A DNA stretch of 64,000 bases from Candidatus Moraniibacteriota bacterium (GTDB taxonomy: Bacteria > Patescibacteriota > Minisyncoccia > Moranbacterales > UBA2206), in assembly GCA_049303905.1 (NCBI GenBank), contig JBAQNP010000005.1, forward strand, positions 61,655-125,654, in the 5' to 3' direction. Of the stretch, positions 11,074-60,966 are shown piece by piece. The translations under genes and the position numbers were made by a program. The number at the start of each line of letters is the position of its first letter. Position 1 is the first letter of the stretch. The notes beneath the pieces are model-generated. The model worked only from the letters and a program-made list of their open reading frames with translations. It had not been told where the DNA came from and searched no databases.

Positions 11074-11162
11074 TTTGTTGGTTAAGTTAATAAAGAAAGT
11101 TTTACTAAAAAAAGTATAACACAACTGAAAAATCTAGTCTAAGAAAAAAGGGGATAAAGGTG

Positions 11163-18853: not shown

Positions 18854-18955
18854 TGTCATTCCTGCGAAAGCAGGAATCTAGTGTAGAAACTTAGTGATTT
18901 GAGACTGGATTCCTGCTTTCGCAGGAATGACAATATACACAAGCCCTTCAGGAGG
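18854..18955. terminator. Cluster of GC-rich hairpins between convergent genes (bidirectional terminators)
   Basis: ATTCCTGCGAAAGCAGGAAT and ATTCCTGCTTTCGCAGGAAT together form an outer TGTCAT…ATGACA inverted repeat. A third hairpin is AGCCCTTCAGGAGGGCT. Confidence 0.6.
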
Positions 18956-20141: not shown

Positions 20142-20618
20142 TTATTCAGTAGGGGTAGCAGAACTTTGTGTACTGCATTCAAATTTATTCCAAGCTTTGC
20201 GTTCTAGAGTGGCTTTGTTATCGGTTATTGATTCCGGATCAGCGGAAAGTATCCACATAACCGCATTAACAAAAAACCAAGCCATTAGTACGATAGTAAA
20301 ACCAGTGAGACTAGCAGTGAGAAAAGCTTTGGCATTTGTCATCATCCCTTCATTGCCAGCAGAAATTATATACATTACTCCTGCAATGAAAATTCCCACC
20401 GCGGCAACAGTGATGAGAAGCTTCAAGCCAAAATCTATAATGCCTTTTATGCCTATGATTAAATGGCAAAGGGTGCAAATTTGACTTTCGTCGACATTTG
20501 GAGTTAATGGATCATTTTTACTCGATCCGCAAGGGACGAGACCGGCGTGCGCCGAAAAAATTGGCAAAAAAATTCCGATAAATAGCAAAAAAATAGCGAT
20601 TTTTATTTTAGTTTGCAT
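20142..20618 (-). CDS. VirB2/TrbC-like pilin-type small membrane protein
   Basis: Signal peptide, two hydrophobic helices, and the motif GVMYIISAGNEG shared with the adjacent paralog. Size and topology resemble T4SS pilins. Confidence 0.4.
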   Translation of the reverse strand: MQTKIKIAIFLLFIGIFLPIFSAHAGLVPCGSSKNDPLTPNVDESQICTLCHLIIGIKGIIDFGLKLLITVAAVGIFIAGVMYIISAGNEGMMTNAKAFLTASLTGFTIVLMAWFFVNAVMWILSADPESITDNKATLERKAWNKFECSTQSSATPTE

Positions 20619-20636
20619 AAGTTTAATTTAAAAATA

Positions 20637-21566
20637 TTAGCTACTCTTGCATTGATTGTAAAAATTTAAAAACACATTGGTTCTTTCGGGCACTGGGCAA
20701 AGTAAATTACAATTAATCGTACAATCCCATTGTAAATAAGGACTTCCATAGCTATTGGTTCCAGAACAGTCGGCACTTGGGCTAAGCGCTACACAACCGC
20801 CGTTATATCCAGCATAAATATCTCTTATTTTTTGTTCTTCGTTAGTTGTTCTCCATTTAGAACTGCATTGTTTTAAATATCTTGCCGCACACTCGAGAGC
20901 TTTTTTTGGGTTGCTTTCTAAATCTTCGCAAGTGGTTCCGCAATTTGCATTGGCTGCAATTTGTACGGCGCTACAATCCCTTCCTCCATTTGTTCGGGCA
21001 GGAACTTGATTGCAACTAGATTCTTTGGCTACTAGAGCTTGAAGTATACATTTATCAAGGCCAGTACTACTAGAAACTTGTTGAAATAGCGTTTGCCACT
21101 CAGAAGAATTGCAATTTGCTGGCATCGTAGCTTTTACTGTGCTAGTTGTTGTACTAGTAGGCGTAGTAGATAATAATCCCCGTAGTGGCTTAAACTGAAC
21201 TAACTCAGGATTGATTGTCCAAAGCAAAACATAAGAAACTAAAGCGAGGATTAGACCAGCGATGGCGTCAGTAATGATTCCTTTGGCTTTGCCCGTTTGA
21301 GAATTGTTACCGGCAGAAGTCAGATACATATAACCACCAAGCATAATCATAAACATTGCTGAGGTTCCAATAGCCCACAGGCCAAATTTGTAGATTGCCA
21401 TTAGATAGGCTGGAAAATCTACCACTGTATTAGCTTGAATAAGTCCGGGAATTCCTTCCATTAGTTTATAGCCAGTAGATGGTGTTTCTGCGGCTAAACA
21501 AAAAAATGGGATAAAATTAATTATCAATAAAAGCAGAAATATTATTTTTATTTTTGTGAATTTCAT
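20637..21566 (-). CDS. Fusion protein: pilin-like N-terminal membrane domain plus a Cys-rich lytic transglycosylase (VirB1-like) domain
   Basis: The N-terminus is paralogous to the preceding gene (GGYMYLTSAGNNS). The C-terminus has the SLT-type catalytic region (…VAKESSCNQ…) and the AYNAG-like motif (DIYAGYNGG). Confidence 0.5.
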   Translation of the reverse strand: MKFTKIKIIFLLLLIINFIPFFCLAAETPSTGYKLMEGIPGLIQANTVVDFPAYLMAIYKFGLWAIGTSAMFMIMLGGYMYLTSAGNNSQTGKAKGIITDAIAGLILALVSYVLLWTINPELVQFKPLRGLLSTTPTSTTTSTVKATMPANCNSSEWQTLFQQVSSSTGLDKCILQALVAKESSCNQVPARTNGGRDCSAVQIAANANCGTTCEDLESNPKKALECAARYLKQCSSKWRTTNEEQKIRDIYAGYNGGCVALSPSADCSGTNSYGSPYLQWDCTINCNLLCPVPERTNVFLNFYNQCKSS

Positions 21567-21661
21567 TTTGTTTTTTTTACCCTATGGAGTACGGACTCAC
21601 AAGGTTGTTAACGCGATTTTTATATTAACGATAATGAATACACAAGAGGTGTATTATGAAA

Positions 21662-24421
21662 TTACTCCATAGGGTGAATTTCCGGAGCAAAGGAAAAAAC
21701 TAATTTAATTACAAATAAAATTAGGGATATCGTAAGGACTATTCGTAGAAGAAATGCTAGATAGGCGGGAGCGGAAGAATAAATAGTAGCGAATATTTTT
21801 TTTGATTTTGCGCTAGCTGTTGTAGTTGGAGCATCTTGCATAGTTATAATAGCATCATCAGAAACTGCTTTTTCATAGAATTGATTGTAAGTGACGCCCC
21901 AAATAGCATTCAGCGCTTTTTTGACCGAATTATTTTGCGTATAAAGGGTGCCAACTGAAATGTTATAGCTTTCCCCCTGTTTTTCTTTTGGAGGAATAGT
22001 CAATATGCCATTGCTATCAATTTTAAAACCATAAACACTAGCATTGGAATAGTTTACTGAATCACCATCGATTTCCCAACCTAAGTTTTCTGGTGAAGCG
22101 GTAAATCCGGTCGTGACTACTTTTAATTTTATATTGGAACTATTATAGGCCCAAAAATTTAATTGGCTATAATCATAAAATGAATTGCCATTAACATCAA
22201 AATATTTTCCTAAAACTGTTTGGTTACAGGTTGTTGTGTCAGCTGAGAGAATGGTGATTTTAGGATCGACCACTTGAAAATTTCTGGATATATTTATTTT
22301 TTCACCATTTTTGTTGGTGGCAATTAGATTTACGGTATATTGTTCCCCAACCTCTTTAAGAACCGGAAAGTAGGCAATGGAAGTTTGTTTTTCGGGGTCG
22401 CAATTTTTGAAAAAACAATATGGATAGGTAAAGGGCTTGCCATCGATTGTCCAGAGAAAATCAGGAGAAATTTCTTTGGGAAAATTATCTGCTGGAACAG
22501 ATAGTCCAACGATTTGATTTTTAGTTACAGGGCAAATGGCTTTGTCCATTGGGTTTTCATCGTCATTGCAAATTTCATTTCCTAAAGCTAAATCTACATT
22601 GGATAAATTACCAGGAATAGTGGTTGGTGTTGTCGGTGTGATATTATGAATGCTTATTTTTTCCTCAGTAGAGCTTATTGGGATAATTAGATCCTGAGTA
22701 TTTTTTCGGGGATGCTTTTCATCACCAGTATTTTCTGTGACGGTGAGAACAACCTTAATATATTTATTTGTTTCAGGTAAACCTAATTTGAATTTGAAAG
22801 TATTGATCCCTAGTCCGACTGATTGAGTTGAGTCTAATAATTCTGGCTTCAAAAGTAGGGTCCAATTATCAGAACTGATATCTGCGCCAGCATAAACCTT
22901 CCAATCATATTGTAAATAATTAGTGTCTTTAGCATTAGAAACAGAAGAATTGATTGTGAGTAAATCGCCATCGCCATCGGCACCAGAAGGGTCATTCATT
23001 GGATTATTTGGAGAATAAGAAAGACTAATGTCAAGCTTATTGCTTCCGGGAGTATTTTCTTGAGGAGAAACTAAAGAATTATAGAGAAATTTATTGAGAT
23101 CAGAAGTTTTTTCAATTTTTCCATCATCAAGTTCAAAATCGTCCGCCGAAAAATTTTCGGTGGAGTAAGTTATGATTGGATTGAGCACGGTATCTGTTTC
23201 GGCTACATTAGTATCGCTTACTAAGGCTTGAGAGATGGTATCTCTTACAACATTATGCATTGTGACAGTAGTTTTAATAGTGGCCATGCTATTAACAACT
23301 TCGCCATCAATTTCTTGGAGAGTTGTTTCGGTGAGATAGGTTGTTTGCCCGGCGACAGGAGTATCGACTGCAGTAGAGATAATTTCATCTGTAGTGGCTG
23401 GATATTCATTATTAGTAAAATCAGCATCAAACTCATTCAATCCTTCGTTCATTGCCCACATTGTTTTATAGGAAGAATCTTCGGTGAGTGGGGCCTCAGT
23501 AGAAACTCCTTCCACAACCACGCCAATCTTGTCGCCTTTTTGATAGCTCCAAGTGAAACTAATAACGCCAAGTCCAGCGACAGTAGCTTCATCGGAGTGC
23601 CCATTATTGGCGGTGTCATTGCTATTAGGATCGGTACGCCAGAATTTTTCTTCATCTCGGCCGAAATCTCCATCGCCTGTTTCTTCCGTATCCCAATCTA
23701 TGGAATTACCTTTATAGTCGATAAAATTTTCGTCTTTAGGGTCAGGGAATAAATGTTCACAAGTGATTTCATATTCCTTGCCAGATTGTGTATTATGGAT
23801 ATAGCAATAAGCATCCTTCCCTTTTTGATCATCGCCACCAAAAGAAGCTTCGTAACCATCATTATCAGAGGATGATTTGTAAATATCTTCAGAGCTTACC
23901 ACGAATCCATTACTGACAATAATTCTCATGGCTTTTATTTTATAGTCTTCTATATCAACCTCATCGTCATTGTTTAGGTCGCATTTATCAAAATCTCCTG
24001 ATTTGAATTTATTTTTATAATTAGACCCATCCAATTCTTCATCGTAACAGATATTTGATTTTAGAAACCAAGTATAGTATAAATTTTTAGGATCATTAAG
24101 GAAAGAAGTCGGGGAAGCGGTGGCAGTGACTTTTTCTCCTTCACTCGGATTGGTTGGGCTAAAGAAAAGTGAAACTTGAGGTGGGTTTTTTTTCTGAGGA
24201 GCGACATTCAACGCTCCGGTAAAAGTTTTGAGAGTTTCCAAATCAAGACCGGCCTCTTCGGCCATTTCACTCATAAGCATTCCCGGTCCGGATATTCCCC
24301 AGATTTTTGAAACACTGCCGACATTAATAGCTTGTGCTATTCCGGCTTGAGAAAAAAACAAAAAACCAATGAGGATAATATTAATTGTTTGATGTATTTT
24401 TTTTAACTTTTTATTTTTCAT
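21662..24421 (-). CDS. Large secreted/surface protein with a C-terminal membrane anchor (candidate adhesin)
   Basis: Signal peptide (MKNKKLKK…AQA). ~900 aa of Asp/Thr/Asn-rich repeats. C-terminal TM helix. Start placed at Met21, abutting the upstream gene. Confidence 0.5.
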   Translation of the reverse strand: MKNKKLKKIHQTINIILIGFLFFSQAGIAQAINVGSVSKIWGISGPGMLMSEMAEEAGLDLETLKTFTGALNVAPQKKNPPQVSLFFSPTNPSEGEKVTATASPTSFLNDPKNLYYTWFLKSNICYDEELDGSNYKNKFKSGDFDKCDLNNDDEVDIEDYKIKAMRIIVSNGFVVSSEDIYKSSSDNDGYEASFGGDDQKGKDAYCYIHNTQSGKEYEITCEHLFPDPKDENFIDYKGNSIDWDTEETGDGDFGRDEEKFWRTDPNSNDTANNGHSDEATVAGLGVISFTWSYQKGDKIGVVVEGVSTEAPLTEDSSYKTMWAMNEGLNEFDADFTNNEYPATTDEIISTAVDTPVAGQTTYLTETTLQEIDGEVVNSMATIKTTVTMHNVVRDTISQALVSDTNVAETDTVLNPIITYSTENFSADDFELDDGKIEKTSDLNKFLYNSLVSPQENTPGSNKLDISLSYSPNNPMNDPSGADGDGDLLTINSSVSNAKDTNYLQYDWKVYAGADISSDNWTLLLKPELLDSTQSVGLGINTFKFKLGLPETNKYIKVVLTVTENTGDEKHPRKNTQDLIIPISSTEEKISIHNITPTTPTTIPGNLSNVDLALGNEICNDDENPMDKAICPVTKNQIVGLSVPADNFPKEISPDFLWTIDGKPFTYPYCFFKNCDPEKQTSIAYFPVLKEVGEQYTVNLIATNKNGEKINISRNFQVVDPKITILSADTTTCNQTVLGKYFDVNGNSFYDYSQLNFWAYNSSNIKLKVVTTGFTASPENLGWEIDGDSVNYSNASVYGFKIDSNGILTIPPKEKQGESYNISVGTLYTQNNSVKKALNAIWGVTYNQFYEKAVSDDAIITMQDAPTTTASAKSKKIFATIYSSAPAYLAFLLRIVLTISLILFVIKLVFSFAPEIHPME

Positions 24422-25086
24422 TTTAGATGGTAAATTATAAAACTGTCTAAAATTATAAGGGAAAATAGAGAGGCTACCCAAGAATAAAATATAGAACGAC
24501 TCTTATAGACTATTATACCAGAAAATAAAGAAATTACGAGTGTCGGTGTCATTTGCCAGAAAGAATTTTCAGTTGGAATAAGAATCAGTGTATAAATAAA
24601 AAATTGCAAAAAAATTGCAAAAAAATCTATTTTTTTAGAAAAATAAAGCAAAACAAACCCTCTCCAGAAAAACTCTTGAATAAAAACAAAAATATTAGCT
24701 AAAATAAGTTCATAAAGCAGAAAAATCCAAAAATTATGAACGACGTAAGAGGATAGTAAATAGTTTTTCCGGAAATCTGTATAGTTATAAAGCAAAAAGA
24801 AGACTAAAAGAGTAACAAAAAACCCAAAAATTCCCCAAAAAAGGCCAGCCTTTTTATCGCCTAAAGTTAAACCAAAATCAGAAATATTTTTTCTAAGAAT
24901 TAATTTATAATAAAGGATAGGGACGATTATTAAAAAGAAAACATTTCTGGTTAATAGTTGAATAGAATTTTTAACAGGAAAAAAGAGGGAGAAAAGAAGA
25001 CAAAAAACAATCACACCAGAAGTGATGATGATTTCTTTGTTCTCGATTAAGCGAGAAGATAGTTTTCTTTTATGATAGTAACGCAT
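24418..25086 (-). CDS. CPBP-family (CAAX/Abi) intramembrane metalloprotease
   Basis: Polytopic. The conserved EExxxR-type motif appears as QEFFWRGFVL. Confidence 0.6.
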   Translation of the reverse strand: MRYYHKRKLSSRLIENKEIIITSGVIVFCLLFSLFFPVKNSIQLLTRNVFFLIIVPILYYKLILRKNISDFGLTLGDKKAGLFWGIFGFFVTLLVFFLLYNYTDFRKNYLLSSYVVHNFWIFLLYELILANIFVFIQEFFWRGFVLLYFSKKIDFFAIFLQFFIYTLILIPTENSFWQMTPTLVISLFSGIIVYKSRSIFYSWVASLFSLIILDSFIIYHLK

Positions 25087-25095
25087 TGATTTTTA

Positions 25096-25599
25096 TTACG
25101 CGTAGCTTTCTTGCTCCGCGTATCTTTGTTGCTCAATTTTCTCAGCATTTTTTTTTCTTTTTTTTAAAACTACAATATACATAGCTACTACTATGCCGGT
25201 GGTTGCAGGGAGGAGACTTATTCCAGGGAGTATTTCTGTAATAGTTCCACCTAAAAGCATAAGTAGAATGCTTATTCCACCGCCTCCACCAGCCAGAACT
25301 CCAAGCATTACCATAAAACCGATAAAAATGAAAATTAAAATAGTCATAATAACCACAAGAGCATAACCCGCACCAGTGACCTGAAAAAGACTTAATAAGT
25401 CATTTAGTGAAGCAGCCACAAGGGCAATATAAAAAAACACATCAGAAGATTTTCTTTGAGAAAAGAGAGAAGTGGATCGGATAATCTTATTAGCAGCAGC
25501 TAATTTTTTTCTAGCTTGTTCTCTTTCTCCAGCTTCTTTTTGTCGAGCCTCTTGCTGACTATTTTCTAATTCTTCTTTTTTTTGGTGGTCGTAATTCAT
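25096..25599 (-). CDS. Hypothetical membrane protein with a charged N-terminus and Gly-rich TM core
   Basis: 167 aa with two or three TM helices. Encoded directly upstream of the VirB4-like ATPase. Confidence 0.4.
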   Translation of the reverse strand: MNYDHQKKEELENSQQEARQKEAGEREQARKKLAAANKIIRSTSLFSQRKSSDVFFYIALVAASLNDLLSLFQVTGAGYALVVIMTILIFIFIGFMVMLGVLAGGGGGISILLMLLGGTITEILPGISLLPATTGIVVAMYIVVLKKRKKNAEKIEQQRYAEQESYA

Positions 25600-25602
25600 A
25601 AT

Positions 25603-27420
25603 TTATTCTTCATCAAACTCTTTCTTGGCTCTTTCAATTTCCAGCATTTGCGCTGGATCGGTGGTGATTATCTGGTCTTCGGAATAGGAAGCGACGACTT
25701 TAATGGCGACATGATTGGTGCCAGCGAAAAAAATTCCTTCTCCTACATTAGATTCAAGAAGTAGAAATTTTTCTTGATCAGTTAAATAGAATGTTTCGCT
25801 AATTACATCTACTGCTGCTGGAGATTGTTTTAGGAGTAGTTGAATAGAGGAGTTGGTGACAATGGCTTTGCCGTAGCGAGAACTCAAAAAATCATTAACG
25901 TCTTGAGTGACAGTAGTAAGCCCGGTATAATATTTTCGGCAACGCTTAGCGATTCCAAAAAGAAAAGAAGCAGCGTCATCATATTTCATCATTACCCAGG
26001 CTTCATCAGCTAAAACCAGTCTTTTTTTGAGAGTAGTTCTCATTTCATTCCAAATAAATTGCATTACCATATACATAGCAATCGGTCGGAGTTCTTCTTC
26101 CATATCGCGAATATTGAAAACCATCATCGGGTTGTCCACCACAACATTAGTAATATTATTTAGAAAACCGGAAAAAATTCCTTCTGTATATTTCTCCATG
26201 CGAATGGCTAAATTTTCTCCACCATCCATACTGCGCAAGATTTGATAGAGATCAGACATGGTTGGATAGGATTCTTTGGTAAGAGAATTAAAGTTTGTTT
26301 CAGCGGAAATATCTCGAACAGCATAAGTTTCTTTGATGGCTCGACCCAAAATCGAATCTTCTTCTGGGGTGATGTTACCAAGCATAATATGGAGTAGTCC
26401 CAAAAGATTAGCGATATTATTTCGTAATATATCTTCCGGATCTTCATCTTCTTTGATATGAGGAAGGTCAAATGGATTGATATGATTGTTTGAATTGAGA
26501 GAAATTTTTATAAAAGTTCCGCCCACTGTTTCACAAAGATGTTTATATTCATTTTCTGGGTCAATAATGATCACATCAGTTCCCATCATCAGCGAGCGAA
26601 GTACTTCCAGTTTTATGGTATAACTTTTTCCAGCGCCGGATTTAGCAAAAACTACCATATTGGCATTTTCCATTTTGAAGCGGTCAAAAATAATCAAACT
26701 ATTATTGTGACGATTTATTCCATAAAGAATTCCTTCATTGGAAGATAGGGTTGAGGAAACAAAAGGAAAAGTCGTGGAAAGCGGAGCGCTGTTCATACTG
26801 GAACCGATGTCCAGTTCATCATTAGCCAATGGCAAAGTTGAATTGAAACCTTGCTCAGATTTGAAAATGGCCGGTTTGACATAAACTAACTGAGCTTCCA
26901 AAATAGCTTCGATAGAACGAGTGATATCAGAAAGCTCTTTTTCATTTTCGCCGTAAGCGGTGATATAGAGTCCAAAGCGAAAAAACTTTTCTGTGCCTTG
27001 TTGCAAATTATTTCTAAGCTCATCGATATCTTGGATGGCAGTTTCAAGGGCGGGATCACGAATCATGCCTTTTTCTTGCTCGATATGAATTTGTGATTCA
27101 ACTCGGGTAGCATTTTTTTTGAGATCTTTCAAAATATCATAAGTTTCAATTGGATGGATAAACATTGAAATATCAATTGGCAAATCGATGTTTATAATGG
27201 GAGAAAACCAATTGCTATTGAGAAATCTTGGATAGGCCACCACAAAAATAGTCTGCGCCAGCGTTTCTCCAACGCGGATAAATTTCGGCATTATTTTTAT
27301 CGCAGCCGGAGCCAAAAGATCATTGAGACGCGAAACACCTTCCTGATAGTATTTTTCACCTTCAAGAATTTCGTTAGTTTTGGCTTGAGTGGTTGGGTTT
27401 TTTTTAAGAAAATTTAGCAT
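25603..27420 (-). CDS. VirB4/TrbE-like type IV secretion ATPase
   Basis: Walker A VVFAKSGAGKSYT. Walker B LVLADEAWVMMK. The C-terminal region resembles the AAA_10 / DUF87 family of conjugative VirB4 ATPases. Confidence 0.7.
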   Translation of the reverse strand: MLNFLKKNPTTQAKTNEILEGEKYYQEGVSRLNDLLAPAAIKIMPKFIRVGETLAQTIFVVAYPRFLNSNWFSPIINIDLPIDISMFIHPIETYDILKDLKKNATRVESQIHIEQEKGMIRDPALETAIQDIDELRNNLQQGTEKFFRFGLYITAYGENEKELSDITRSIEAILEAQLVYVKPAIFKSEQGFNSTLPLANDELDIGSSMNSAPLSTTFPFVSSTLSSNEGILYGINRHNNSLIIFDRFKMENANMVVFAKSGAGKSYTIKLEVLRSLMMGTDVIIIDPENEYKHLCETVGGTFIKISLNSNNHINPFDLPHIKEDEDPEDILRNNIANLLGLLHIMLGNITPEEDSILGRAIKETYAVRDISAETNFNSLTKESYPTMSDLYQILRSMDGGENLAIRMEKYTEGIFSGFLNNITNVVVDNPMMVFNIRDMEEELRPIAMYMVMQFIWNEMRTTLKKRLVLADEAWVMMKYDDAASFLFGIAKRCRKYYTGLTTVTQDVNDFLSSRYGKAIVTNSSIQLLLKQSPAAVDVISETFYLTDQEKFLLLESNVGEGIFFAGTNHVAIKVVASYSEDQIITTDPAQMLEIERAKKEFDEE

Positions 27421-27517
27421 AGTTTTTTTACGAACTACGAAATAAGTAAAATACGAAACGATTAAACTCCATTTTCGTACTTTCGTATTTAGTATTTATT
27501 TCGTAGTTCGTAAATGA
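27421..27517. repeat. TACGAA-rich hairpin element with an 18-bp perfect inverted repeat (TTACGAACTACGAAATAA … TTATTTCGTAGTTCGTAA)
   Basis: Read directly. It fills the whole spacer between the upstream gene's stop and the VirB4 start. Related to 28705-28797 and 43741-43855. Confidence 0.8.
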
Positions 27518-28240
27518 TTATTGTAATTCTAACTTTTCCACATCTTTTAATTCTGACGCATTGAAAATTTCTGGATTGTATGAATTGAACAGCAGTTCGA
27601 TGAGTTCTTCGGTTTTAAGTGGGGCAATGCGCAGTCCAATTCCAGAAAGAGCGGCGATTATATGGTCAACTCTTTGAAAAAGCTGATTTTTGTAAGTTTC
27701 AAAATTTTCATTTTTTTCGATGATGTTTTTTTGTGGGTTCATTAGACTGCCAATATTGGAAAAAAACCCTTTTCCAGTGTTTTCGATCGGAGAAAATGGA
27801 ATAATGATATAGAAATTCTTTTCCATAATATTGGAACCACTCACGAGTTGTTCAATGAAGCTTCTATATTCAGATAGTTGCAAGCGAAGAAGTTCGCTGG
27901 GCTGAGTTTTCTCTTTGCTAGTGACATAATCAAAATAATTTCGCATATCTAGTTTTCGCGAGCTCACTAGTATTTGTACAGGAAAATCTACCGAATTCAA
28001 GAAATTTTGATATTGATTAATGATGGCTTCTTGTTCTTGGGTTGATTTCAAATCAAAATTTATCGCTGACACAGCCAAAACGGAGCGCATAGCACCTGAT
28101 TTCAAAATGACCACATCATCTTTGACTTCTGCTACGTCCAAGTATTTTTGGGTTGGAGAAGATGATGGTTCAGTAGAGAGTTTTTTTGAGTGTAGAAATT
28201 CCATAGATATCTGAACCACATGATTCTCACTGATTAACAC
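27518..28240 (-). CDS. Hypothetical protein within the T4SS-like cluster
   Basis: 240-aa ORF, co-directional and tightly spaced with its neighbours. No recognisable family. Confidence 0.45.
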   Translation of the reverse strand: MLISENHVVQISMEFLHSKKLSTEPSSSPTQKYLDVAEVKDDVVILKSGAMRSVLAVSAINFDLKSTQEQEAIINQYQNFLNSVDFPVQILVSSRKLDMRNYFDYVTSKEKTQPSELLRLQLSEYRSFIEQLVSGSNIMEKNFYIIIPFSPIENTGKGFFSNIGSLMNPQKNIIEKNENFETYKNQLFQRVDHIIAALSGIGLRIAPLKTEELIELLFNSYNPEIFNASELKDVEKLELQ

Positions 28241-28308
28241 TTGATTGCATATGAATTAAAATTCAGTGAAATCAGGAAAATCATGTGATAATCAGTGGTT
28301 CTGATTTT

Positions 28309-28704
28309 TTATTTTCTGTTTAATATTTTTGTCAGTTCTTCTATCTTGCTATTATCCAAAACTTTTCTTTTGACAATAATTTCTTCTTTAGGTTTCTGGA
28401 TTTTTTTAGCTACTTTCATATTATCATAATATCGTTTCCAAACATAGACCTTAGGCTTGAGAAAAAAATTAACTCCAGACATTAGAAAATTGAGAAGTGG
28501 TTGGTTGTAGGGTCTATAGAAAGCTAGCGCGCCAAAAATTGCTAGAGTGATAACGGCTACAGGAAGAAAAGTAGAAAAAACCAGTGTGCTCCAAAAAATC
28601 AAAAGTAAAACGCCGGCAATTCCAAGCCAACCAAGTTGTTTGGCAGTAAGCGGACCGACAATCTTGTCCTCGATGTCGATGAATTGTGGTACGTTAAAAA
28701 GCAT
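28309..28704 (-). CDS. Small membrane protein, possibly a VirB3-like T4SS component
   Basis: 131 aa, two TM helices, a basic C-terminus. Positioned near the VirB4-like gene as VirB3 homologs are in Gram-positive T4SS. Confidence 0.35.
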   Translation of the reverse strand: MLFNVPQFIDIEDKIVGPLTAKQLGWLGIAGVLLLIFWSTLVFSTFLPVAVITLAIFGALAFYRPYNQPLLNFLMSGVNFFLKPKVYVWKRYYDNMKVAKKIQKPKEEIIVKRKVLDNSKIEELTKILNRK

Positions 28705-28797
28705 TTTGTGTGTATGGTTAATTATTTATTTACGAAAATACGAATTAAACTAAATTACGAATTCGTACTTTCGCTAGATTCGTATTTTCGTAAATGA
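28705..28797. repeat. TACGAA-rich hairpin element (TTACGAAAATACGAAT … ATTCGTATTTTCGTAA)
   Basis: 16-bp perfect inverted repeat. Its last ~15 nt (cgtaaatgattattg) are identical to those of the 27421-27517 element, and both abut a stop codon. Confidence 0.8.
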
Positions 28798-30159
28798 TTA
28801 TTGTTTATTCTTGAGGTTGACTATATTCCCCGGTGGCACATCGGTTTTTCGCATATTTTGCGAGGAAATTCGCATTGGCTGAGGCCCTGGATTAGGCAAT
28901 GGTTGTTGTATGGGTTGAATAGTCTGTTTTTCATAGGGCAATTTTTGCGGAGAACTGAAATTAATGTTGCCGGCATTTCTATTTTCGGTAGCCATTCTTT
29001 CTTCTTTGAAAATATCTTTTGGTTTTACTTCTTGTTTTTGAGAATTATAAACTTCTTGAATATTTCTTTGCGGTGTTTGGTAAATCACTCTTGGAGGTTC
29101 GACCTCCCTTTTGGAGGTCGAACCTCCATTGGAAACGGCTTGCTCGTGTCTTGAAAAAACTATTTGTTTTGTGTTCACATTAACATCCACCAAGGAATTT
29201 TCGTCATAAGCCTTTAAAAGAAAAGAAATTTTTTCACGGTCAGTTGAGTTCAAAACCTTGGCATTTTCATTGCGGAAAAGGTATGTTCCGCGATCCATGG
29301 CACTGTGTGATTCAAAACCGAGGCTGAAAGTGTAATCCGAAAGCCAATTACTGATTGATGGTCGCACCGGTTCTGGAAAATTTTTGAGTTTGATGCGCAT
29401 TGAAGTGACAAGTTGTTCACCAATTTCGGGAAATTTTTTGAGAGCGTCGGGAAGGAAGAGTTGTTCGATTTTTGTTTGTTCTTCCTGACTGTTAGAAATA
29501 GAGTTTTGAGGGATATAATTATGTAGGGTTTGGGGTTGTGGAGAAGAAAAATTCTGGGATGATTGATGATTGGAATTTAGAATTGCATCAAGTGTTGGTC
29601 CTGTAGCTGGTAAGGTAGTGACAAGCAAATAGTCATAAATATGAATAAACTCTTTGAGGCGACTTTTTTCAATAGGATTTAATGATATAGCATTTCGGTT
29701 GGTGTTTACGAAATCAACTGAAGCTGATAAATTTCTGGTTTTGATGTTATGATTTTTCTCAAATTCTGCTATCCATTCCGAGACTGTAAGCGATCCAAGT
29801 TTTTGTTGATTTTCCATAAGTGCTTGTTTGAGTTTTTGTCTGAGGGCATCACGAGGAATTTCTGGGACTAGAAATAATTTTACAGTCAATCTATTTTCCA
29901 TATCAATTTCTGCATCAAAAGAAGAAAGAAAATTATCTCTTAAAACTCTAGCTGTTTCTTCATCGGAAAGTTGTGGAATAGCGGTTAGATTAAGATAGAT
30001 GAGGATTTTTTGTAATTTCTCAAATAAGACAGGATTATTTTTTTGCACATTTTCTGACGCTAAAAAATCTCGCACATCCTTGATGAGTTTTTTTGCTTCC
30101 ACATCATCATAATGATGAATAGCATCATTCGAATTTTTTATAAAATCATTTGTTAACAT
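28798..30159 (-). CDS. Hypothetical protein within the T4SS-like cluster
   Basis: 453-aa ORF with no TM segment. The C-terminus is Gln/Pro-rich. Confidence 0.45.
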   Translation of the reverse strand: MLTNDFIKNSNDAIHHYDDVEAKKLIKDVRDFLASENVQKNNPVLFEKLQKILIYLNLTAIPQLSDEETARVLRDNFLSSFDAEIDMENRLTVKLFLVPEIPRDALRQKLKQALMENQQKLGSLTVSEWIAEFEKNHNIKTRNLSASVDFVNTNRNAISLNPIEKSRLKEFIHIYDYLLVTTLPATGPTLDAILNSNHQSSQNFSSPQPQTLHNYIPQNSISNSQEEQTKIEQLFLPDALKKFPEIGEQLVTSMRIKLKNFPEPVRPSISNWLSDYTFSLGFESHSAMDRGTYLFRNENAKVLNSTDREKISFLLKAYDENSLVDVNVNTKQIVFSRHEQAVSNGGSTSKREVEPPRVIYQTPQRNIQEVYNSQKQEVKPKDIFKEERMATENRNAGNINFSSPQKLPYEKQTIQPIQQPLPNPGPQPMRISSQNMRKTDVPPGNIVNLKNKQ

Positions 30160-30171
30160 AAAATATTTTAT

Positions 30172-32385
30172 CTATGGCTTAAAATTAGGATCATTTTTAA
30201 ATCCATCTACCCTTCTAATAAACTCATCAATTATTCCAGCTTGAGTTGGATTCGCAGTTCTAATTGAATTGGCGTGAGTTCGCATCTCAGGAATTTTTTG
30301 AGACATTCTATCAAAAAAATCTTTTCTGGCTCGGTTTAATTGACCTAATTCAGAAGGTGTCAGAGATTCAAGTTGCTTAAACCCAATTCCATGAATATTG
30401 CCAGTAGTTCCATCCGCATTTTGTTGTAAAAATGAATTCCAATGCCACAAGTCAGTTTTTGTTTGAGCTTTTATATTAGAAGCTTTTCCGGCTGCCATTG
30501 CAAATTGACCTGAATCAGCTCCTGTTGCTGGATCTAAATCGATATCTTCATTTTTTTGATATTTTCCTGTTTTTATATTAAACTTGCCCATTCCAAAGAG
30601 TTGAAAATTTCCTTTTCCGAATGAAATCTCTCCAATATCTGCTAATTGTTTTGCTGCTTGTTCTTTTGACATTCCTGATTTAGTTAATTGTGCGTATATT
30701 CTCTCCCTAACATTTGTTGGATCCATTGTATCTCCTTCTTCTTGCATAAAATCATTGAGATCATTATTTGATGCAATAATACGAAGTGTTGCTGACATTT
30801 TTTCATGATCACCAGCGCTTCTCGCCTTTTTGTATTCATTATAGAGATATCGAAAATCAGTACTAGTGCTTTGTAATTCCTTTTCTTTAGTGGCAATATT
30901 TCCTTGAATTGCAGTGTCTTTGAAATTTGTTTGCTCACCACTAATTTTATTTAATTTATCTCTCCATGATCCAGTAGCAATTTTGAAAGCTTTTCTTTCT
31001 TTTTCTGCTGTATTTTCTTTCCAGGCGGTTTTGAAAGCGGTTGGGCTTGCCCACCACATGTATTTGCTTTTTGCTAAGCCTCGATCTGTTTTTTTCAAAA
31101 GAGTAGACCCGCCCCATTTACCTGCCCTGACTGGCCAGTTCATGACTTTTTTCCCTTGACCGACTACCGCGCCTGCTCCGACAGCGCTCATTGATTGAGC
31201 GACGCCAATTCCCATCCAAAGAATAACGATTGGAATAGTGAAAAATGAAATACTAGCTATAAAATCTGGATTATCAGTTTGACTAGCGGCTATTTTTTGC
31301 ATAGAACCCATTCCACTTTTTCCAATCTCAGTCATCATTCCAGAGGCGATATACATCATAAATAGCATTATTGGCCCAAAAAAAGCATAATTGAAAAGTT
31401 TTTTCCACCAATCTGAGGCATAGGAAGAAAGTTGTGGAATGGCAGCTCCGACAAAAGCCAGAGAAGAAAAAATAATGAGTATTGCTAATGCAATTGTTCG
31501 CAAAACAAAGAGAACGGTGATAGTTACTATGGTTACGGCAAAGATAAAAACAAAAATAACAGCTGCAAGTAAGTATGTTGAATCAAAGGAACCAATTTCA
31601 TTATGAATAATTTCTGGTAATTTAGCAGCGCCAGCAAAATCAACCATTGTTCTTGCGCCATTGATTCCAAGGGCATCGGCAAAATAAAACATCATCACAT
31701 TAGAAACATCAATAATGAAGCGAGAAATAGGAAAGCTAAAATTGACTAAAAGTGCCATAATCACAATCCATAACAATGTTTTTTTGTAATTATATTTGTC
31801 AACTTGAAAAACAGTAGCAAAAGCGCTAAAAAGCAAAAACATAATAAATGAAACATTAAGCACATCGCGGACCATTGTCCAAGCATTATAAACGGAATTA
31901 TTGTTTATAACAGCAGTGACATTTTCTGGTTTCATTATCCATTCAAAAAGAGAAGCCGCAGATTCCATTAGCCATACCATGAGATTTAACAACATAAGCA
32001 GAGTACAATTCATGATGTTTTTACTAAATTCAGGGAGCGTACAAGAATCTGGACTAGGGTTAAGGGTAGTAGATGCACTATTATAGTTGCCAAGGCCAAT
32101 ATTAGAATCGGAATTGTCATCAAATGCACAATTGTCGGAAGCAACATTTTTAGCTTTGCACAAATCTTGACATTTTGCTTGTGTGACATTTTCTCCTAAT
32201 GGAGTATTTATAACATCAACTCTTTCGAAACAGTCTCCGAGAGGTTCTTCTGCTTTTGCCTTCTCCCCTTTCCCAAACCCAAAACCAATCACCAATATAA
32301 AAATGATAGCTAGTAAAATTTTGCGGGGATTTGTTTTTATGTGTGTTTGTTGGGACATGTATCTTATAAAATTTTCAATTTTCAA
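30172..32385 (-). CDS. Large polytopic membrane protein, VirB6/TrbL-like candidate
   Basis: Signal peptide. A Cys-containing extracytoplasmic domain. About 7 TM helices centrally. A C-terminal soluble domain. This topology is typical of Gram-positive VirB6 homologs. Confidence 0.4.
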   Translation of the reverse strand: MKIENFIRYMSQQTHIKTNPRKILLAIIFILVIGFGFGKGEKAKAEEPLGDCFERVDVINTPLGENVTQAKCQDLCKAKNVASDNCAFDDNSDSNIGLGNYNSASTTLNPSPDSCTLPEFSKNIMNCTLLMLLNLMVWLMESAASLFEWIMKPENVTAVINNNSVYNAWTMVRDVLNVSFIMFLLFSAFATVFQVDKYNYKKTLLWIVIMALLVNFSFPISRFIIDVSNVMMFYFADALGINGARTMVDFAGAAKLPEIIHNEIGSFDSTYLLAAVIFVFIFAVTIVTITVLFVLRTIALAILIIFSSLAFVGAAIPQLSSYASDWWKKLFNYAFFGPIMLFMMYIASGMMTEIGKSGMGSMQKIAASQTDNPDFIASISFFTIPIVILWMGIGVAQSMSAVGAGAVVGQGKKVMNWPVRAGKWGGSTLLKKTDRGLAKSKYMWWASPTAFKTAWKENTAEKERKAFKIATGSWRDKLNKISGEQTNFKDTAIQGNIATKEKELQSTSTDFRYLYNEYKKARSAGDHEKMSATLRIIASNNDLNDFMQEEGDTMDPTNVRERIYAQLTKSGMSKEQAAKQLADIGEISFGKGNFQLFGMGKFNIKTGKYQKNEDIDLDPATGADSGQFAMAAGKASNIKAQTKTDLWHWNSFLQQNADGTTGNIHGIGFKQLESLTPSELGQLNRARKDFFDRMSQKIPEMRTHANSIRTANPTQAGIIDEFIRRVDGFKNDPNFKP

Positions 32386-32492
32386 TTATCAAATATCTCT
32401 GGTTTGAAATTTTTTACTTAAAAATTCATTGAAAATTGAAAACTGAAGCTTGTTTTTGTATTTTGTTCGTTTCATTCGCATGTGGTTCGCCC

Positions 32493-32533
32493 GCCTCGAC
32501 TCGCGGAGACCGCTTGTCGACGCGAGGCGGGTA
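32493..32533. repeat. GC-rich ~42-bp palindromic element (CCCGCCTCG…GTCGACG…CGAGGCGGG)
   Basis: It stands out in an AT-rich genome. Near-identical copies at 43778-43819 and 60967-61013 (reverse complement). Confidence 0.75.
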
Positions 32534-32551
32534 GATTTGCGTCGCTATATA

Positions 32552-33550
32552 TTATAAAACAGTATCCCCGATTGATTTTTTTATATCAGTAGCTGTTTGT
32601 CCGGAATTTTTCACGGCGTCCACTCCGAATCTGGCGGCTGGACCGTAGGTGGTCATAGCGGAACTGGCGGCGCCGGTATATTTGGTTGCGCCGGCGGTAG
32701 CTTTGGCTGTTTTTGATTTGACACTCACAAATCCTTGCATAACCAGGCGACTAGTCATCTGAGTGACCAAGGCAGTGGCGATTTCCGGAACGCTAGAGGC
32801 GGCTTCCAAAAGGCGATCAGGCATAGTTTGCTTGCTGTTCATCAGTGCCCCGACGGTGCTTCCAGGCATAGTTTCTGTACCAGGAGAATCTCCAGGAACT
32901 CCCAAATATCCTCCACCGGCAATACCTTTGGCCATAGCGATTTTTTCTTCATTTTCAAGTACTCTTTGACGTTCAGTTTGAAGTGTCGTATAAACACCAG
33001 GTAAATAATTTGGTCTTTTAACAGAATTTCCTAGATTTTTAAAAGTGCCACTTTGAAGTGCTTGCCGTGGATTACCCTCATAGGTCACTTGAGGATTTTT
33101 AGCGTTTCCTAATAATTGGCCAACTTGTCCTAATTGAGCCGCATAATTATTTGGTCCGGAAAAACCTTCGGTGGAATAGAGAGAGGAAGAATTTCTTCCA
33201 CGAGTCATTTGACTGATATAGTCGTTCATATATAAATTTGTTTTGTTTTGTGGTTCGTTGATCAAATAATCTTCCCAATTGACAATAAAAGATGCTTGTC
33301 CACCAGCACCTCGTCCCGCCAAGGCGTCAACTTGCATACTGAGCATTATAACGGCTTGTTGCTTCAGTGTACCAACCATAAGACCATCTATCATATCCTC
33401 TATTATCATTAGTCCTTCCATAATAGCCGGATCAAGTCCTGGAATCCAAGCTGCCTGAGTTTTAGGCACACTGGAAAAGCAGAAAATTACTAGTATAAAA
33501 ACTATTAAAAATATTTTTATTATAATTTTATTTTTATAACGAAAAAACAT
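32552..33550 (-). CDS. Secreted hypothetical protein
   Basis: N-terminal signal peptide. Ala/Gly/Thr-rich. No recognisable family. Confidence 0.45.
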   Translation of the reverse strand: MFFRYKNKIIIKIFLIVFILVIFCFSSVPKTQAAWIPGLDPAIMEGLMIIEDMIDGLMVGTLKQQAVIMLSMQVDALAGRGAGGQASFIVNWEDYLINEPQNKTNLYMNDYISQMTRGRNSSSLYSTEGFSGPNNYAAQLGQVGQLLGNAKNPQVTYEGNPRQALQSGTFKNLGNSVKRPNYLPGVYTTLQTERQRVLENEEKIAMAKGIAGGGYLGVPGDSPGTETMPGSTVGALMNSKQTMPDRLLEAASSVPEIATALVTQMTSRLVMQGFVSVKSKTAKATAGATKYTGAASSAMTTYGPAARFGVDAVKNSGQTATDIKKSIGDTVL

Positions 33551-33564
33551 AATTTTTTTGTACT

Positions 33565-34584
33565 TTATTTTTCAAAAATATCCATACTAATCCCTTTGTC
33601 ATTTAGTTTGTTTTGAACATTCTCAGAATCAATGCCATAATCATTTAGTTTGGTTTGAATTTCATCATAAAAACTATTCAGGCTTTGCACAAAAGTTGCA
33701 ATTTTCGAGTAGTTTGCCAGATTTGATAACGGATCGGCTGGATCAATCTTGATTAAATTTTTCAAGTCCTGAGCATAGAGTCCATATTGCAAGGCTTTTA
33801 TCTGAGTATCAACCAAATCCTCCGGCACTTCCACTTCTTTTAGTTGTTCATAAATTTTTTTCCCGCTTTGGCTAAGATCAGTAAGATTGGCCGGATCGCC
33901 GGAAGTCAAGGAAGAAGAAATTTGAGTGACAATTTGATTTATCACGGCATTTGTGTCTGAAGCAGAAGTGAGTGGTTTGGGAGAATTGCTAGTGAAAATA
34001 TAGAGAATGGAAACAAAATAATTTGTAGCATCCTCCTTCATTTTTTCTTTGGCTTTTTCTTTGCTTAAATTTCCATAATTTTGTTTCAATATTTTTATGG
34101 AATCTTTGGAAATTTCTGGCAGTTCACTTTTGAGATTTTCGCCATTCATAATGGAGTCTAGGAGTGTCTGAACTTCCTCCATACCAATTTCTTGTTTGTC
34201 TACATCTTTTTCATTAGTTAGCACGGATATTTTTTGGGCCACATCTTGGGTTAGGTTTTGTTTTTCTTTTTTTGTATCAGTGCTTTCTCCTTTGACAGCT
34301 GGAACTAGGGAAGCAGTGAGTTTATCTCCGGGAGCTTTTTTTAGTGGGTCATACCCTGCTTTTATTTCAGCGCCGTCAGAATATCCATCGCCGTCCGTGT
34401 CAGCTTTTTTTGCGTCAGTACCATAAGTTTTTTCTTCCGCATCAGTGAGACCATCTTGATCAGAGTCGAGAAAAATATTTTTTGTGCCATTAGAATTTTC
34501 AGTGGCGCTCACAAAAAAAGCCAAGCTTAAAGACAATAAGCTCACTAGTATTAGTAGGGTTGCGTTGATATTTTTCAGTTTCAT
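33565..34584 (-). CDS. Secreted protein with thrombospondin-type-3-like Ca-binding repeats
   Basis: Signal peptide after Met27. Repeats DSDQDGLTDAEE / DTDGDGYSDGAE. The ORF-track N-terminal extension (MVGDKL…) runs through the palindromic repeat and is an artefact. Confidence 0.5.
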   Translation of the reverse strand: MKLKNINATLLILVSLLSLSLAFFVSATENSNGTKNIFLDSDQDGLTDAEEKTYGTDAKKADTDGDGYSDGAEIKAGYDPLKKAPGDKLTASLVPAVKGESTDTKKEKQNLTQDVAQKISVLTNEKDVDKQEIGMEEVQTLLDSIMNGENLKSELPEISKDSIKILKQNYGNLSKEKAKEKMKEDATNYFVSILYIFTSNSPKPLTSASDTNAVINQIVTQISSSLTSGDPANLTDLSQSGKKIYEQLKEVEVPEDLVDTQIKALQYGLYAQDLKNLIKIDPADPLSNLANYSKIATFVQSLNSFYDEIQTKLNDYGIDSENVQNKLNDKGISMDIFEK

Positions 34585-34646
34585 AATTGCAAATAAATTA
34601 TACCATAAAAAAGAAAAATTTAAAACAAATTTTAGGGTGTGGATAA

Positions 34647-34761
34647 GTTTATCCCCCACCACTTTTAGTTTTGTTTATTTTAATTAAATTCATTAAATTA
34701 ACTAAAAGGGTTTAAATTTACATTTTTATACAAAAATCTCATAAACTAAAAGTGGTGGGGG
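34647..34761. repeat. Second copy of the C-rich palindromic element (ATCCCCCACCACTTTTAG … CTAAAAGTGGTGGGGGAT)
   Basis: 18-bp perfect inverted repeat around a 75-bp AT-rich spacer. Preceded by TGTGGATAA (34637-34645). Lies in a divergent promoter region. Confidence 0.8.
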
Positions 34762-34810
34762 ATTTGCTCTGGGGGTGTACTTTTTCAAAATTATTTGCTA
34801 GATTTAGATT

Positions 34811-42404: not shown

Positions 42405-42441
42405 AAATTCATGAAACATGAAGCATGAAACACGAAACAAT

Positions 42442-43740: not shown

Positions 43741-43855
43741 ATTTACGAAAATACGAATTAAACTAAATTACTAATTCGCCCAGCCTCGACTCGCGAAGAC
43801 GCTCGTCGACGCGAGGCGGGTACTTTCGCTAGATTCGTATTTTCGTAAGGATAAC
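43741..43855. repeat. Composite repeat: a TACGAA hairpin element (as at 28705-28797) interrupted by the GC-rich 42-bp palindrome
   Basis: The outer ~75 bp align almost base-for-base with 28721-28797. The inner block 43778-43819 matches 32493-32533. Confidence 0.8.
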
Positions 43856-57126: not shown

Positions 57127-57214
57127 CAGCATAAGAAATATGATAGAGTTAAAGAGTCGAGAAAGTACATTTAAAAAGATAATGGGACCATAGCTCAGTG
57201 GTAGAGCGCGCGGC

Positions 57215-57589: not shown

Positions 57590-57838
57590 AATCTAATTAT
57601 AACACAAAATGAATAATTGCAACAGGGCTGTTTGAGAAGTAATTTTCAAATGAATTCTGTCAAATTCGGGGAAATCTTAAGTTTTTATTTTATATAAAAA
57701 AATGACAATCCCGAGCCAAGTCCCGACGCTAAGTCGGGAAAGGTGTAGAGACTAGATGGCAGACATCCCGAGTATTTGGGATGAAGGGATAGTCCAGCTT
57801 ACAAATTCGAAAGAAGTTGCGAAAGCAATAGTGAGATG
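57216..57838 (+). mobile_element. Group I intron (IC3-like, tRNA-intron type) with an antisense HNH ORF
   Basis: The core matches cyanobacterial-type tRNA introns: CAATCCCGAGCCAAGTCC, GGGAAAGGTGTAGAGACTAGATGGCAG, and the P7 pair AGACUA/UAGUCC. It ends in omega-G at 57838. Confidence 0.65.
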
Positions 57839-57884
57839 CATAACCGCTTGGTCGAAGGTTCGAATCCTTCTGGTCCCACAAAAA

Positions 57885-60956: not shown

Positions 60957-60966
60957 AATATTTTTA

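Follow-up and report, generated by a model that had tools for sequence, protein, structure and literature searches.

A survey of thousands of Patescibacteria genomes (Quinonero-Coronel et al. 2025; PMC12102498) describes type IV secretion systems (T4SSs) of one distinctive kind. Their VirB4 proteins form a separate clade, related to that of the mating-pair formation class FATA (MPF-FATA). TrsD is abundant, PrgI/VirB3 and VirB6 occur as well, VirB2-like pilins are encoded near virB4, and the clusters are found in proximity to dnaA, dnaN and ksgA. Relaxases are hardly ever present: a few Patescibacteria carry them, but the survey counted 109 in all, and 15 near virB4. The type IV coupling protein (T4CP) is usually encoded at a distance from the cluster. 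Epibiotic growth of Southlakia epibionticum requires the T4SS together with its pilins, and no recognisable coupling or relaxase proteins are found (Wang et al. 2023; PMC10633639). A 2025 review (PMC12857230) describes these systems as unique among monoderms, and the pilin arrays as essential in S. epibionticum. Here we analyze a T4SS gene cluster residing in a 64-kb stretch of DNA (hereafter the window; all coordinates are positions in it) from Candidatus Moraniibacteriota (assembly GCA_049303905.1, contig JBAQNP010000005.1). The cluster most probably encodes a vertically inherited, chromosomal T4SS of the Patescibacteria type, derived from monoderm MPF-FATA conjugation machinery and serving a non-conjugative role in the interaction with a host.

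Comparison with known systems

The cluster and the published systems of the Patescibacteria clade, including that of S. epibionticum ML1 (SEML1_0006-0019), have most features in common. Both are chromosomal and close to dnaA, dnaN and ksgA. Both feature an MPF-FATA-like VirB4, a separate TrsD-like protein, PrgI/VirB3, and VirB2-like pilins encoded next to virB4; a VirB6 homologue missed by most standard profiles is a probable further likeness. Neither has a nearby relaxase or T4CP, nor VirB7, VirB9 or VirB10. In contrast to the published systems, the present one belongs to Moranbacteria (Parcubacteria group), and is known from genes alone. Two pilin genes are found here, one of them fused to an SLT domain, versus an array of six in the comparison system of the clade. 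The accessory genes of the cluster, which encode a CPBP protease, proteins of 939, 453, 167 and 332 aa, and a TSP3-repeat protein, are not discussed in the accessible portions of PMC12102498 and PMC10633639.

The Prg/Pcf system of the Enterococcus faecalis plasmid pCF10 is the MPF-FATA prototype. Its VirB4, PrgJ, falls into the same NCBIfam family (CD1110) as the VirB4 of the window, and its VirB3 is of the PrgI family. The order VirB6-VirB3-VirB4-cell-wall hydrolase (prgH-prgI-prgJ-prgK) is collinear in the two, with TrsD interposed here, and both have a monoderm architecture without an outer-membrane core. pCF10 encodes the T4CP PcfC, the relaxase PcfG, the LPXTG adhesins PrgB and PrgC and the VirB8-like PrgL and PrgD, none of which has a counterpart in the window. 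Its VirB4 is a single chain of 796 aa and it has no pilin, whereas in the window VirB4 is split and VirB2-like pilins are present. When hidden Markov models (HMMs) of the cluster families were compared with the pCF10 Prg/Pcf proteins, only the VirB4-PrgJ match was significant (2.8e-56), and the rest stayed at the level of the negative controls.

A separate TrsD beside the VirB4 ATPase is a trait shared with the Trs system (TrsD plus TrsE) of the staphylococcal plasmids pGO1 and pSK41 (PMC12102498). That system is plasmid-borne and conjugative, with relaxase and T4CP, unlike the cluster described here. The Trs subclass lacks a VirB6 homologue and pilins (PMC12102498), while the window has proteins of both kinds, the VirB6-like one being recognised via its orthologues. 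A functional likeness links the cluster to the rvh system of Rickettsiales and other 'extended VirB6' systems, which are chromosomal and non-conjugative, and reside in reduced-genome, host-dependent bacteria, as here. Both feature a large additional hydrophilic VirB6 domain, as well as divergent VirB2 paralogues, which are seen as a mark of host interaction (PMC12857230, PMC12102498). Yet rvh belongs to the diderm MPF-T systems, has VirB7-11 and VirD4, is encoded at scattered loci, and shares no family with the cluster.

Organization of the cluster

Twelve consecutive open reading frames (ORFs) fill the minus strand from 20142 to 34662. An earlier note on this DNA had counted twelve genes in a row in this interval, and the ORF listing agrees with it exactly, sizes included. 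By rising coordinate, the ORFs measure 158, 309, 939, 222, 167, 605, 240, 131, 453, 737, 332 and 365 aa. A probable thirteenth co-directional ORF (384 aa, 18962-20116) starts the series at its lower end, 25 nt downstream of the ORF of the 158-aa pilin, and is syntenic in relatives. Gaps between ORFs measure mostly 3-25 nt; the longer ones (68-166 nt) are those which bear hairpins. The GC content of the cluster (0.34-0.39) is near that of the flanks. Proteins of the window are 100% identical to proteins of a Candidatus Moraniibacteriota metagenome-assembled genome (tags WA055_00895 and WA055_00905).

The maximal ORFs are probably too long at the start for three genes (365, 939 and 240 aa). A more plausible start for the 365-aa gene is the ATG at 34584 (MKLKNINATLL..., a signal peptide), and for the 939-aa gene the ATG at 24421, which overlaps the stop codon of the CPBP gene as ATGA. 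The 240-aa ORF probably starts at the internal Met13.

Conservation in relatives

The cluster was compared by tblastn and ORF mapping in 80 loci from species-level genomes. VirB4 was found in all 80, TrsD in 77 and PrgI in 75. About 50 loci, in which VirB4 is at least 75% identical, share both the chromosomal site and the full gene order: KsgA, UbiA, TSP3 protein, 332-aa protein, VirB6, 453-aa protein, PrgI and TrsD, followed by VirB4, 167-aa protein, CPBP, 939-aa protein, pilin-SLT, pilin, 384-aa protein and Wzy. The order is common to about 50 Moranbacteria species. A clade further away, with VirB4 at about 70% identity, retains a compact core of pilin, pilin-SLT, PrgI, TrsD, VirB4 and 167-aa protein, which adjoins G5 and KsgA.

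Rates of change differ sharply along the cluster. In the four closest genomes (L001, L002, L004 and L005), identity is 97-98% for VirB4, 91-98% for TrsD and 89-93% for PrgI. The flanking Wzy, 384-aa (TolB-like), UbiA and KsgA proteins are 66-85% identical. Values are 40-56% for the VirB6-like protein, 44-87% for the pilin-SLT fusion, 51-79% for the 453-aa and 53-79% for the 332-aa protein. The excess of identity in VirB4, TrsD and PrgI over the flanks points to strong purifying selection on the engine. Judged from these values, the engine (VirB4, TrsD and PrgI) is unusually constrained, and the envelope parts are fast-evolving. Together with the fixed chromosomal position, this pattern of rates speaks against a mobile element and for a functional machine passed on vertically.

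The VirB4 ATPase and its TrsD-like partner

The 605-aa protein (25603-27420, minus strand) is a VirB4-family ATPase, as the earlier note had proposed. It matches the Pfam models P-loop_TraG (2.8e-30), AAA_10 and DUF87, and the NCBIfam model conju_CD1110 (1.6e-106; 357.3 bits, cutoff 325). Against profiles of PDB entries, the best matches are the C-terminal domain of VirB4 (4ag5, 5.9e-50) and TrwK (1.6e-5). Walker A (AKSGAGKS) and Walker B (LVLADEAW) motifs are intact in the translation. Homologues fall into at least 120 clusters, 79-97% identical to it; among the matches listed, all measure 587-622 aa, and those with source names come from Moranbacteria, Parcubacteria or Patescibacteria.

The ATPase covers positions 186-734 of the 752 of conju_CD1110, and 268-893 of the 894 of VirB4_plasma. 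The preceding gene encodes a protein of 240 aa (27518-28240, minus strand), which aligns to positions 84-279 of VirB4_plasma (5.5e-11) and 12-120 of conju_CD1110 (3.6e-6), to the TrsD model (1.3e-7), and to positions 5-167 of VirB4_CagE (5e-4). Every one of these matches is below threshold, yet they are mutually consistent, and complementary to those of the 605-aa protein. Because the ranges complement each other in this way, the 240-aa protein is, by profile comparison, the missing N-terminal domain of VirB4, made as a separate TrsD-like polypeptide, a point missed by the earlier note. A separate TrsD-like ORF of 226-253 aa is found in 77-78 of the 80 loci, some of which have no hairpin in the spacer.

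A recent split of VirB4 through insertion of the hairpin lying between the two genes was considered and rejected. In 77-78 of the 80 loci two distinct ORFs, of 240 and approximately 605 aa, are present, some split loci have a gap of 4 nt and no hairpin, and none of the close VirB4 homologues listed falls outside the size range given above.

Other components of the transport machine

The 131-aa protein (28309-28704, minus strand) is of the PrgI/VirB3 type. The Pfam PrgI match is above threshold (3.4e-10; 40.7 bits, cutoff 27), in line with the VirB3-like small membrane protein predicted earlier, and a hydrophobic transmembrane (TM) region spans residues 19-65. PrgI adjoins trsD-virB4 in 75 of the 80 loci.

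The 737-aa protein (30172-32385, minus strand) is a polytopic membrane protein with 6-7 hydrophobic stretches. The N-terminal region contains Cys; it is followed by a conserved TM core (about residues 129-404) and, over the last 330 aa or so, by a C-terminal region that is hypervariable. In the alignment of orthologues, invariant columns occur only within residues 147-390. Four of 42 syntenic orthologues match TrbL/VirB6 (PF04610; best 1e-8), and these align with the rest at the invariant columns of the TM core. Identity to the nearest relatives is 60-71% in the TM core, and 17-46% in the C-terminal region (405-737). The VirB6-like nature claimed for this protein is thus supported through the orthologues, and not through the window copy.

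Two paralogous genes encode putative VirB2-like pilins. The smaller product (158 aa; 20142-20618, minus strand) has, by hydropathy, a signal peptide and two hydrophobic helices. The larger (309 aa; 20637-21566, minus strand) is a fusion of a VirB2-like pilin and a Cys-rich, SLT/lysozyme-like (VirB1-like) domain, with 15 Cys residues and an E-S motif at residue 182. Assignments are made via the family, because its members match the Pfam models, and the window copies themselves fall below curated thresholds. In a set of 78 pilins, T4SS_pilin (PF18895) is matched by 74 (best 9.2e-22), SLT by 15 (best 7.7e-16) and SLT_3 by 7. The claim of two pilin paralogues, one SLT-fused, is borne out by this family rather than by the window copies alone.

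Accessory and surface proteins

The first gene of the cluster (365 aa; 33565-34662, minus strand) encodes a secreted protein with TSP3 Ca-binding repeats, as had been noticed. It matches Pfam TSP3_bac (3.1e-14) over two stretches, with motifs DSDQDGLTDAEE at residue 66 and DTDGDGYSDGAE at residue 88; a helical region follows, and the N-terminus carries a hydrophobic segment. Orthologues occupy the same position in 42 loci.

The next gene (332 aa; 32552-33550, minus strand) encodes a secreted protein with a signal-peptide-like N-terminus, predicted to be all-helical and syntenic in about 40 loci. A VirB5-like identity, considered with the N-terminus of TrbJ/VirB5 in view, was rejected, given no match in Pfam, NCBIfam or PDB profiles and an AlphaFold2 (AF2) model too poor to be used (predicted local distance difference test, pLDDT, 44).

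The 453-aa protein (28798-30159, minus strand) has neither TM segments nor a signal peptide. It is predicted to fold into a helical domain (1-196) and an alpha/beta domain (230-335), followed by a disordered tail in which the motifs FSSPQKLP and NVVNLK are conserved. The AF2 model is confident (mean pLDDT 80.5, both domains above 90), but a Foldseek search against PDB gave nothing significant (best E 0.39). No match was found in Pfam, NCBIfam or PDB profiles, and no Pfam model exists for the family, which at E<=1e-3 comprises 1467 representative clusters (50% identity), and is syntenic in about 40-50 loci.

Directly downstream of virB4 lies a gene for a small membrane protein (167 aa; 25096-25599, minus strand). 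It has a charged N-terminus and hydrophobic stretches within residues 54-146, probably 3-4 TM segments; Pfam and NCBIfam matches are weak, at chance level. Orthologues follow virB4 in 55 loci, those of the distant clade included. The hypothesis that it is a relative of the pilins was discarded (hhalign probability 9.6%).

The 222-aa protein (24418-25086, minus strand) is a CPBP (Rce1-like) intramembrane glutamic protease, and the earlier assignment is upheld by a Pfam Rce1-like match above threshold (1.9e-6; 28.5 bits, cutoff 22.4). The best NCBIfam match is full-length, to the archaeomyxosortase MrtA, and below threshold (3.5e-7; 30.6 bits, cutoff 200). The gene is syntenic in 48 loci. Its stop codon overlaps, as said, the probable start of the gene for the large anchored surface protein (939 aa; 21662-24481, minus strand). 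The latter has a signal peptide, hydrophobic segments at residues 33-54 and 903-938 and a variable ectodomain, and lacks Pfam and NCBIfam matches. The C-terminal anchor, KKIFAT..S..P.Y.AFL.RI.LT, is conserved in 35 orthologues, includes a buried Arg, and does not have the Cys-containing MYXO-CTERM pattern of myxosortase substrates. Since the anchor is well conserved while the ectodomain varies, it is suggested that the anchor may touch other membrane components, or be the target of the coupled CPBP protease.

The 384-aa protein encoded at the end of the series (18962-20116, minus strand) is anchored at the N-terminus, and shows a weak similarity to TolB-like beta-propellers (TIGR02800, 3.2e-5). 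It is syntenic in 38-39 loci, and its gene is followed by a strong hairpin (18854-18932).

Chromosomal context

Pfam scans covered the 13 co-directional ORFs and 29 further ORFs of at least 151 aa across the window. No relaxase was found in the scanned ORFs, over 20 kb upstream and 29 kb downstream of the cluster. Within the same limits, no T4SS-DNA_transf, TraG-D or FtsK-type match denoting a T4CP/VirD4 was obtained besides VirB4, and no match to VirB7-10 or CedA. The scans agree with the statement of the earlier note that neither VirD4 nor a relaxase is visible. Two domain-less ORFs of the window (425 and 325 aa) encode membrane proteins, as judged by sequence.

The flanks are ordinary chromosome. 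They include genes for dnaA, dnaN, yidC, PBP1a, glycosyltransferases, Wzy-like, UbiA-like, KsgA and NAPRTase, along with ComM-like, signal peptidase II, PNPase, UvrD (containing an intein), FtsH, TilS, Cmk and S1. dnaA (9694-11124) and dnaN (8249-9406) lie about 9-11 kb from the cluster, which is thus near the probable replication origin; ksgA (36493-37368) is near the upstream end. No integrase or tRNA gene was found at the cluster borders. The closest recombinase (XerC/D-like) and tRNA are 21 kb off. A ComM-like Mg-chelatase-family ATPase is encoded at 40875-42440, about 6 kb past the other end of the cluster.

Proposed function and alternative explanations

A reading free of conjugation is favoured because no relaxase, T4CP or integrase lies near the cluster, the flanks are housekeeping genes, and the position is the same in about 50 species. 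That the locus encodes an apparatus for host attachment or exchange, rather than a conjugative element, had been proposed in the earlier note; the proposal is supported, and is the published view for T4SSs of Patescibacteria (PMC10633639, PMC12102498, PMC12857230).

The genes may form one transcription unit of about 15.7 kb, which would begin near 34.6 kb and end at the hairpin near 18.9 kb; the tight spacing and the ATGA overlap count in favour of it. VirB4 and TrsD would energise the extraction of pilin from the membrane, and a pilus or channel would be assembled on a platform made of VirB3 and VirB6. The SLT domain would open the cell wall locally, in a VirB1-like role. Synthesis of the CPBP protease is probably translationally coupled to that of the 939-aa anchored surface protein. 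The variable surface proteins and the C-terminal region of VirB6 could tune the machine to particular hosts. The whole would serve a cell-to-cell relation with the host, by contact, export or import of a substrate.

Several observations weigh against this interpretation. The 158-aa pilin scores below the cutoff with T4SS_pilin (1.5e-4; 22.2 bits, cutoff 26.6), as does the 309-aa protein with both T4SS_pilin (1.5e-3; 19.0 bits) and SLT (3.3e-3). The match of the 240-aa protein to the TrsD model reaches 31.6 bits, the cutoff being 200, and the 737-aa protein of the window has no match in Pfam, NCBIfam or PDB profiles. No VirB8-like component was found. For half of the twelve proteins no family can be recognised: those of 939, 453, 332 and 167 aa, the VirB6-like one in its C-terminal region, and the 365-aa one outside its TSP3 repeats. 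Promoter-like sites (55, against 53 expected from shuffles) and terminator-like sites (17, against 11.7 +/- 3.7) do not define the transcription unit, because both are at the level of shuffled sequences. The window covers 64 kb of a 126-kb contig, and a T4CP or a relaxase could be encoded elsewhere. A 2024 perspective (PMC11665869) calls the role of the Saccharibacteria T4SS 'completely unknown', with effector delivery and nucleic-acid uptake as ideas.

The last of these ideas would make the cluster a T4SS working in reverse, like Helicobacter ComB or archaeal Ced, which imports DNA or nucleotides to feed a cell unable to make nucleotides. Uptake systems need neither relaxase nor T4CP, and neither is present in the window; the ComM-like gene is 6 kb away, import has been raised for Saccharibacteria (PMC11665869), and VirB4 gives sub-threshold matches to the DNA-import ATPases CedB (1.3e-11) and CedD (4.5e-5). 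We regard import as unlikely nonetheless. The CedB and CedD scores are tiny against their cutoffs (CedB 43.9 bits, cutoff 700) and reflect the ATPase fold shared by VirB4 and HerA; ComB-type VirB7-10 and CedA were not found, and none of the cluster proteins could be recognised as binding DNA. Deletion of comEC in S. epibionticum kills competence, not viability, while the T4SS is essential (PMC12857230), a result which parts the T4SS from classical transformation, other routes of uptake being compatible with it. Similarly unlikely is a pilus-only organelle, in which a VirB2-type pilus and displayed adhesins would attach the cell to its host, nothing being translocated. The attachment of Saccharibacteria is already credited to type IV pili (PMC12857230), and the soluble, probably cytoplasmic 453-aa protein, like the conserved VirB4/TrsD/VirB3 engine, fits either role. 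On the other side, the locus encodes two pilins, a large surface protein with an anchor, and secreted proteins of the Ca-binding kind, it lacks a substrate receptor (T4CP), and for S. epibionticum the pilin arrays are essential (PMC12857230).

An integrated conjugative element, remnant or active, the relaxase, coupling protein and integrase of which would lie outside the window, is by far the least probable explanation. The earlier note had envisaged that the VirB4-like protein might turn out to be the ATPase of such an element, with a relaxase just outside. As to the ATPase this holds in part, since the protein is above the conju_CD1110 cutoff (357 versus 325 bits), and belongs to the family of pCF10 PrgJ; the context is not that of an element of this kind. 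The site and gene order, between the same housekeeping genes, are the same in about 50 species, no element borders are seen, GC content is like that of the flanks, and VirB4 is more conserved than its housekeeping neighbours. No relaxase or T4CP is found within 20 kb on one side and 29 kb on the other. Relaxases are known from a few Patescibacteria (PMC12102498), but the survey has only 109 of them, and only 15 near virB4. A tyrosine recombinase sits beside tRNA-Val 21 kb away; its layout is of the XerC/D type, and KsgA, NAPRTase, PNPase, UvrD and others lie between it and the cluster.

Within the preferred interpretation, that of a vertically inherited T4SS for host interaction, there is some small chance that the accessory genes make up an undescribed Moranbacterial module, in which a myxosortase-like CPBP/939-aa pair and the 453-aa protein would take part in a symbiont-host transport machine. 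Were this improbable reading true, the 453-aa protein would stand in for the coupling protein and, in the cytoplasm, receive substrates or act as gatekeeper, the CPBP protease would mature the 939-aa surface protein or the pilins, and the VirB6 C-terminus and the surface proteins would set the host specificity of the transport.

Palindromic repeats in the spacers

Hairpin-forming repeats mark the spacers of the cluster. The earlier note had placed such elements in three intergenic spacers; they are real, with RNA-fold z-scores ranging from -5.3 to -9.6, but the number was too low, as at least five spacers are occupied. Hairpins of the 'TACGAA' type are found in the trsD-virB4 spacer (27427-27514; 22-nt arms, 95% complementary; -33.1 kcal/mol, z -7.65), and in the spacer between the 453-aa gene and prgI (28723-28800; 39-nt arms, z -8.9). 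An inverted repeat (21576-21678; z -5.3) lies between the 939-aa and pilin-SLT genes. The spacer between the 332-aa and VirB6 genes (32372-32531) houses two hairpins, one AT-rich (32372-32447), the other a GC-rich palindrome (32490-32531). A long hairpin (34651-34763; 21-nt perfect arms, z -7.5) is located in the divergent region upstream of the cluster. At the opposite end, a hairpin with 29-nt arms, 97% complementary (18854-18932; -48 kcal/mol, z -9.6), separates the last gene from the convergent Wzy-like gene; related sequences are found elsewhere in L002 and L005.

A third copy of the 'TACGAA' family is at 43743-43848. The GC-rich palindrome occurs at 32490-32531, 43783-43822 and 60965-61015, the copy at 43.7 kb being nested inside the AT-rich 'TACGAA' one. 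The hairpin at 28.7 kb has 100% identical counterparts in two other Moranbacteria genomes: one of 80 nt in L004, where it occupies the corresponding spacer, and one of 70 nt in L001, where it lies between trsD and virB4. Because an identical copy sits in a different spacer in L001, the hairpins are viewed as small mobile palindromes, akin to miniature inverted-repeat transposable elements (MITEs) or repetitive extragenic palindromes (REPs), and the two dispersed palindrome families look like active MITE/REP-like elements. They are dispersed repeats which settle in intergenic gaps, and neither parts of the secretion system nor specific to the cluster. On the mRNA strand, the hairpins are flanked at the 3' side by runs of A, not of U. 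In this respect they do not look like intrinsic terminators of the cluster transcript.

Other features of the window

A putative type IV toxin-antitoxin pair (AbiEii toxin, AbiEi antitoxin) is encoded at 5636-7049 (minus strand), near the dnaN-dnaA origin region. On the other side of the cluster, a reverse transcriptase (RT) ORF (50067-51161, minus strand) matches the NCBIfam model retron_St85_RT below cutoff (1e-31), and more weakly Drt and TIR anti-phage RTs; it is possibly a defence retron. A 125-nt repeat near it (copies at 49112 and 59001) was tried as template/variable pair of a diversity-generating retroelement, which might diversify surface proteins, and rejected, as the mismatches show no specificity for adenine and neither copy lies within a gene. 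The UvrD/PcrA gene (51191-54577, plus strand) is interrupted by an intein (Intein_splicing and Hint matches; approximately residues 273-639), which divides the helicase domains. A run of heptamer-like CATGCTT/ATGAAGC repeats (54325-54439), making up an imperfect inverted repeat, is found in the region of the 3' end of the UvrD gene.

A tRNA gene (57184-57886, plus strand) apparently contains a group I intron. Its 5' half begins at 57184 (GGGACCATAGCTCAGTGGTAGAGC), the intron core matched by Rfam Intron_gpI (81.7 bits) spans 57605-57819, and the 3' half, which comprises T-arm and acceptor, extends to about 57886. CAU is the probable anticodon; ARAGORN made no call. An ORF of 124 aa (57215-57589, minus strand) is contained in the intron region.

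Significance of the locus

The system was described in 2023-2025, its overall arrangement is known, and the interpretation given in the earlier note restates a published system. The locus is thus categorically not new. It is a clean and complete example from Moranbacteria, which offers a clear split of VirB4, a strict order of 13 genes in about 50 species, and a near-invariant engine set against a fast-evolving envelope. Modest additions to the literature are the conserved, lineage-specific accessory genes of Moranbacteria, the hypervariable C-terminus of VirB6, the contrast of rates between engine and envelope, the mobile palindromes, the ATGA coupling of the CPBP and 939-aa genes, and the conserved anchor of the 939-aa protein. 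A large part of bacterial diversity belongs to Patescibacteria, which live on other microbes, and few machines besides their chromosomal T4SS have been shown, in Saccharibacteria, to be essential for that lifestyle. The conserved, unannotated partners, namely the 453-aa protein, the CPBP protease with the 939-aa protein, and the 167-aa protein, are concrete candidates to start from in a search for the material which such a machine binds or moves.

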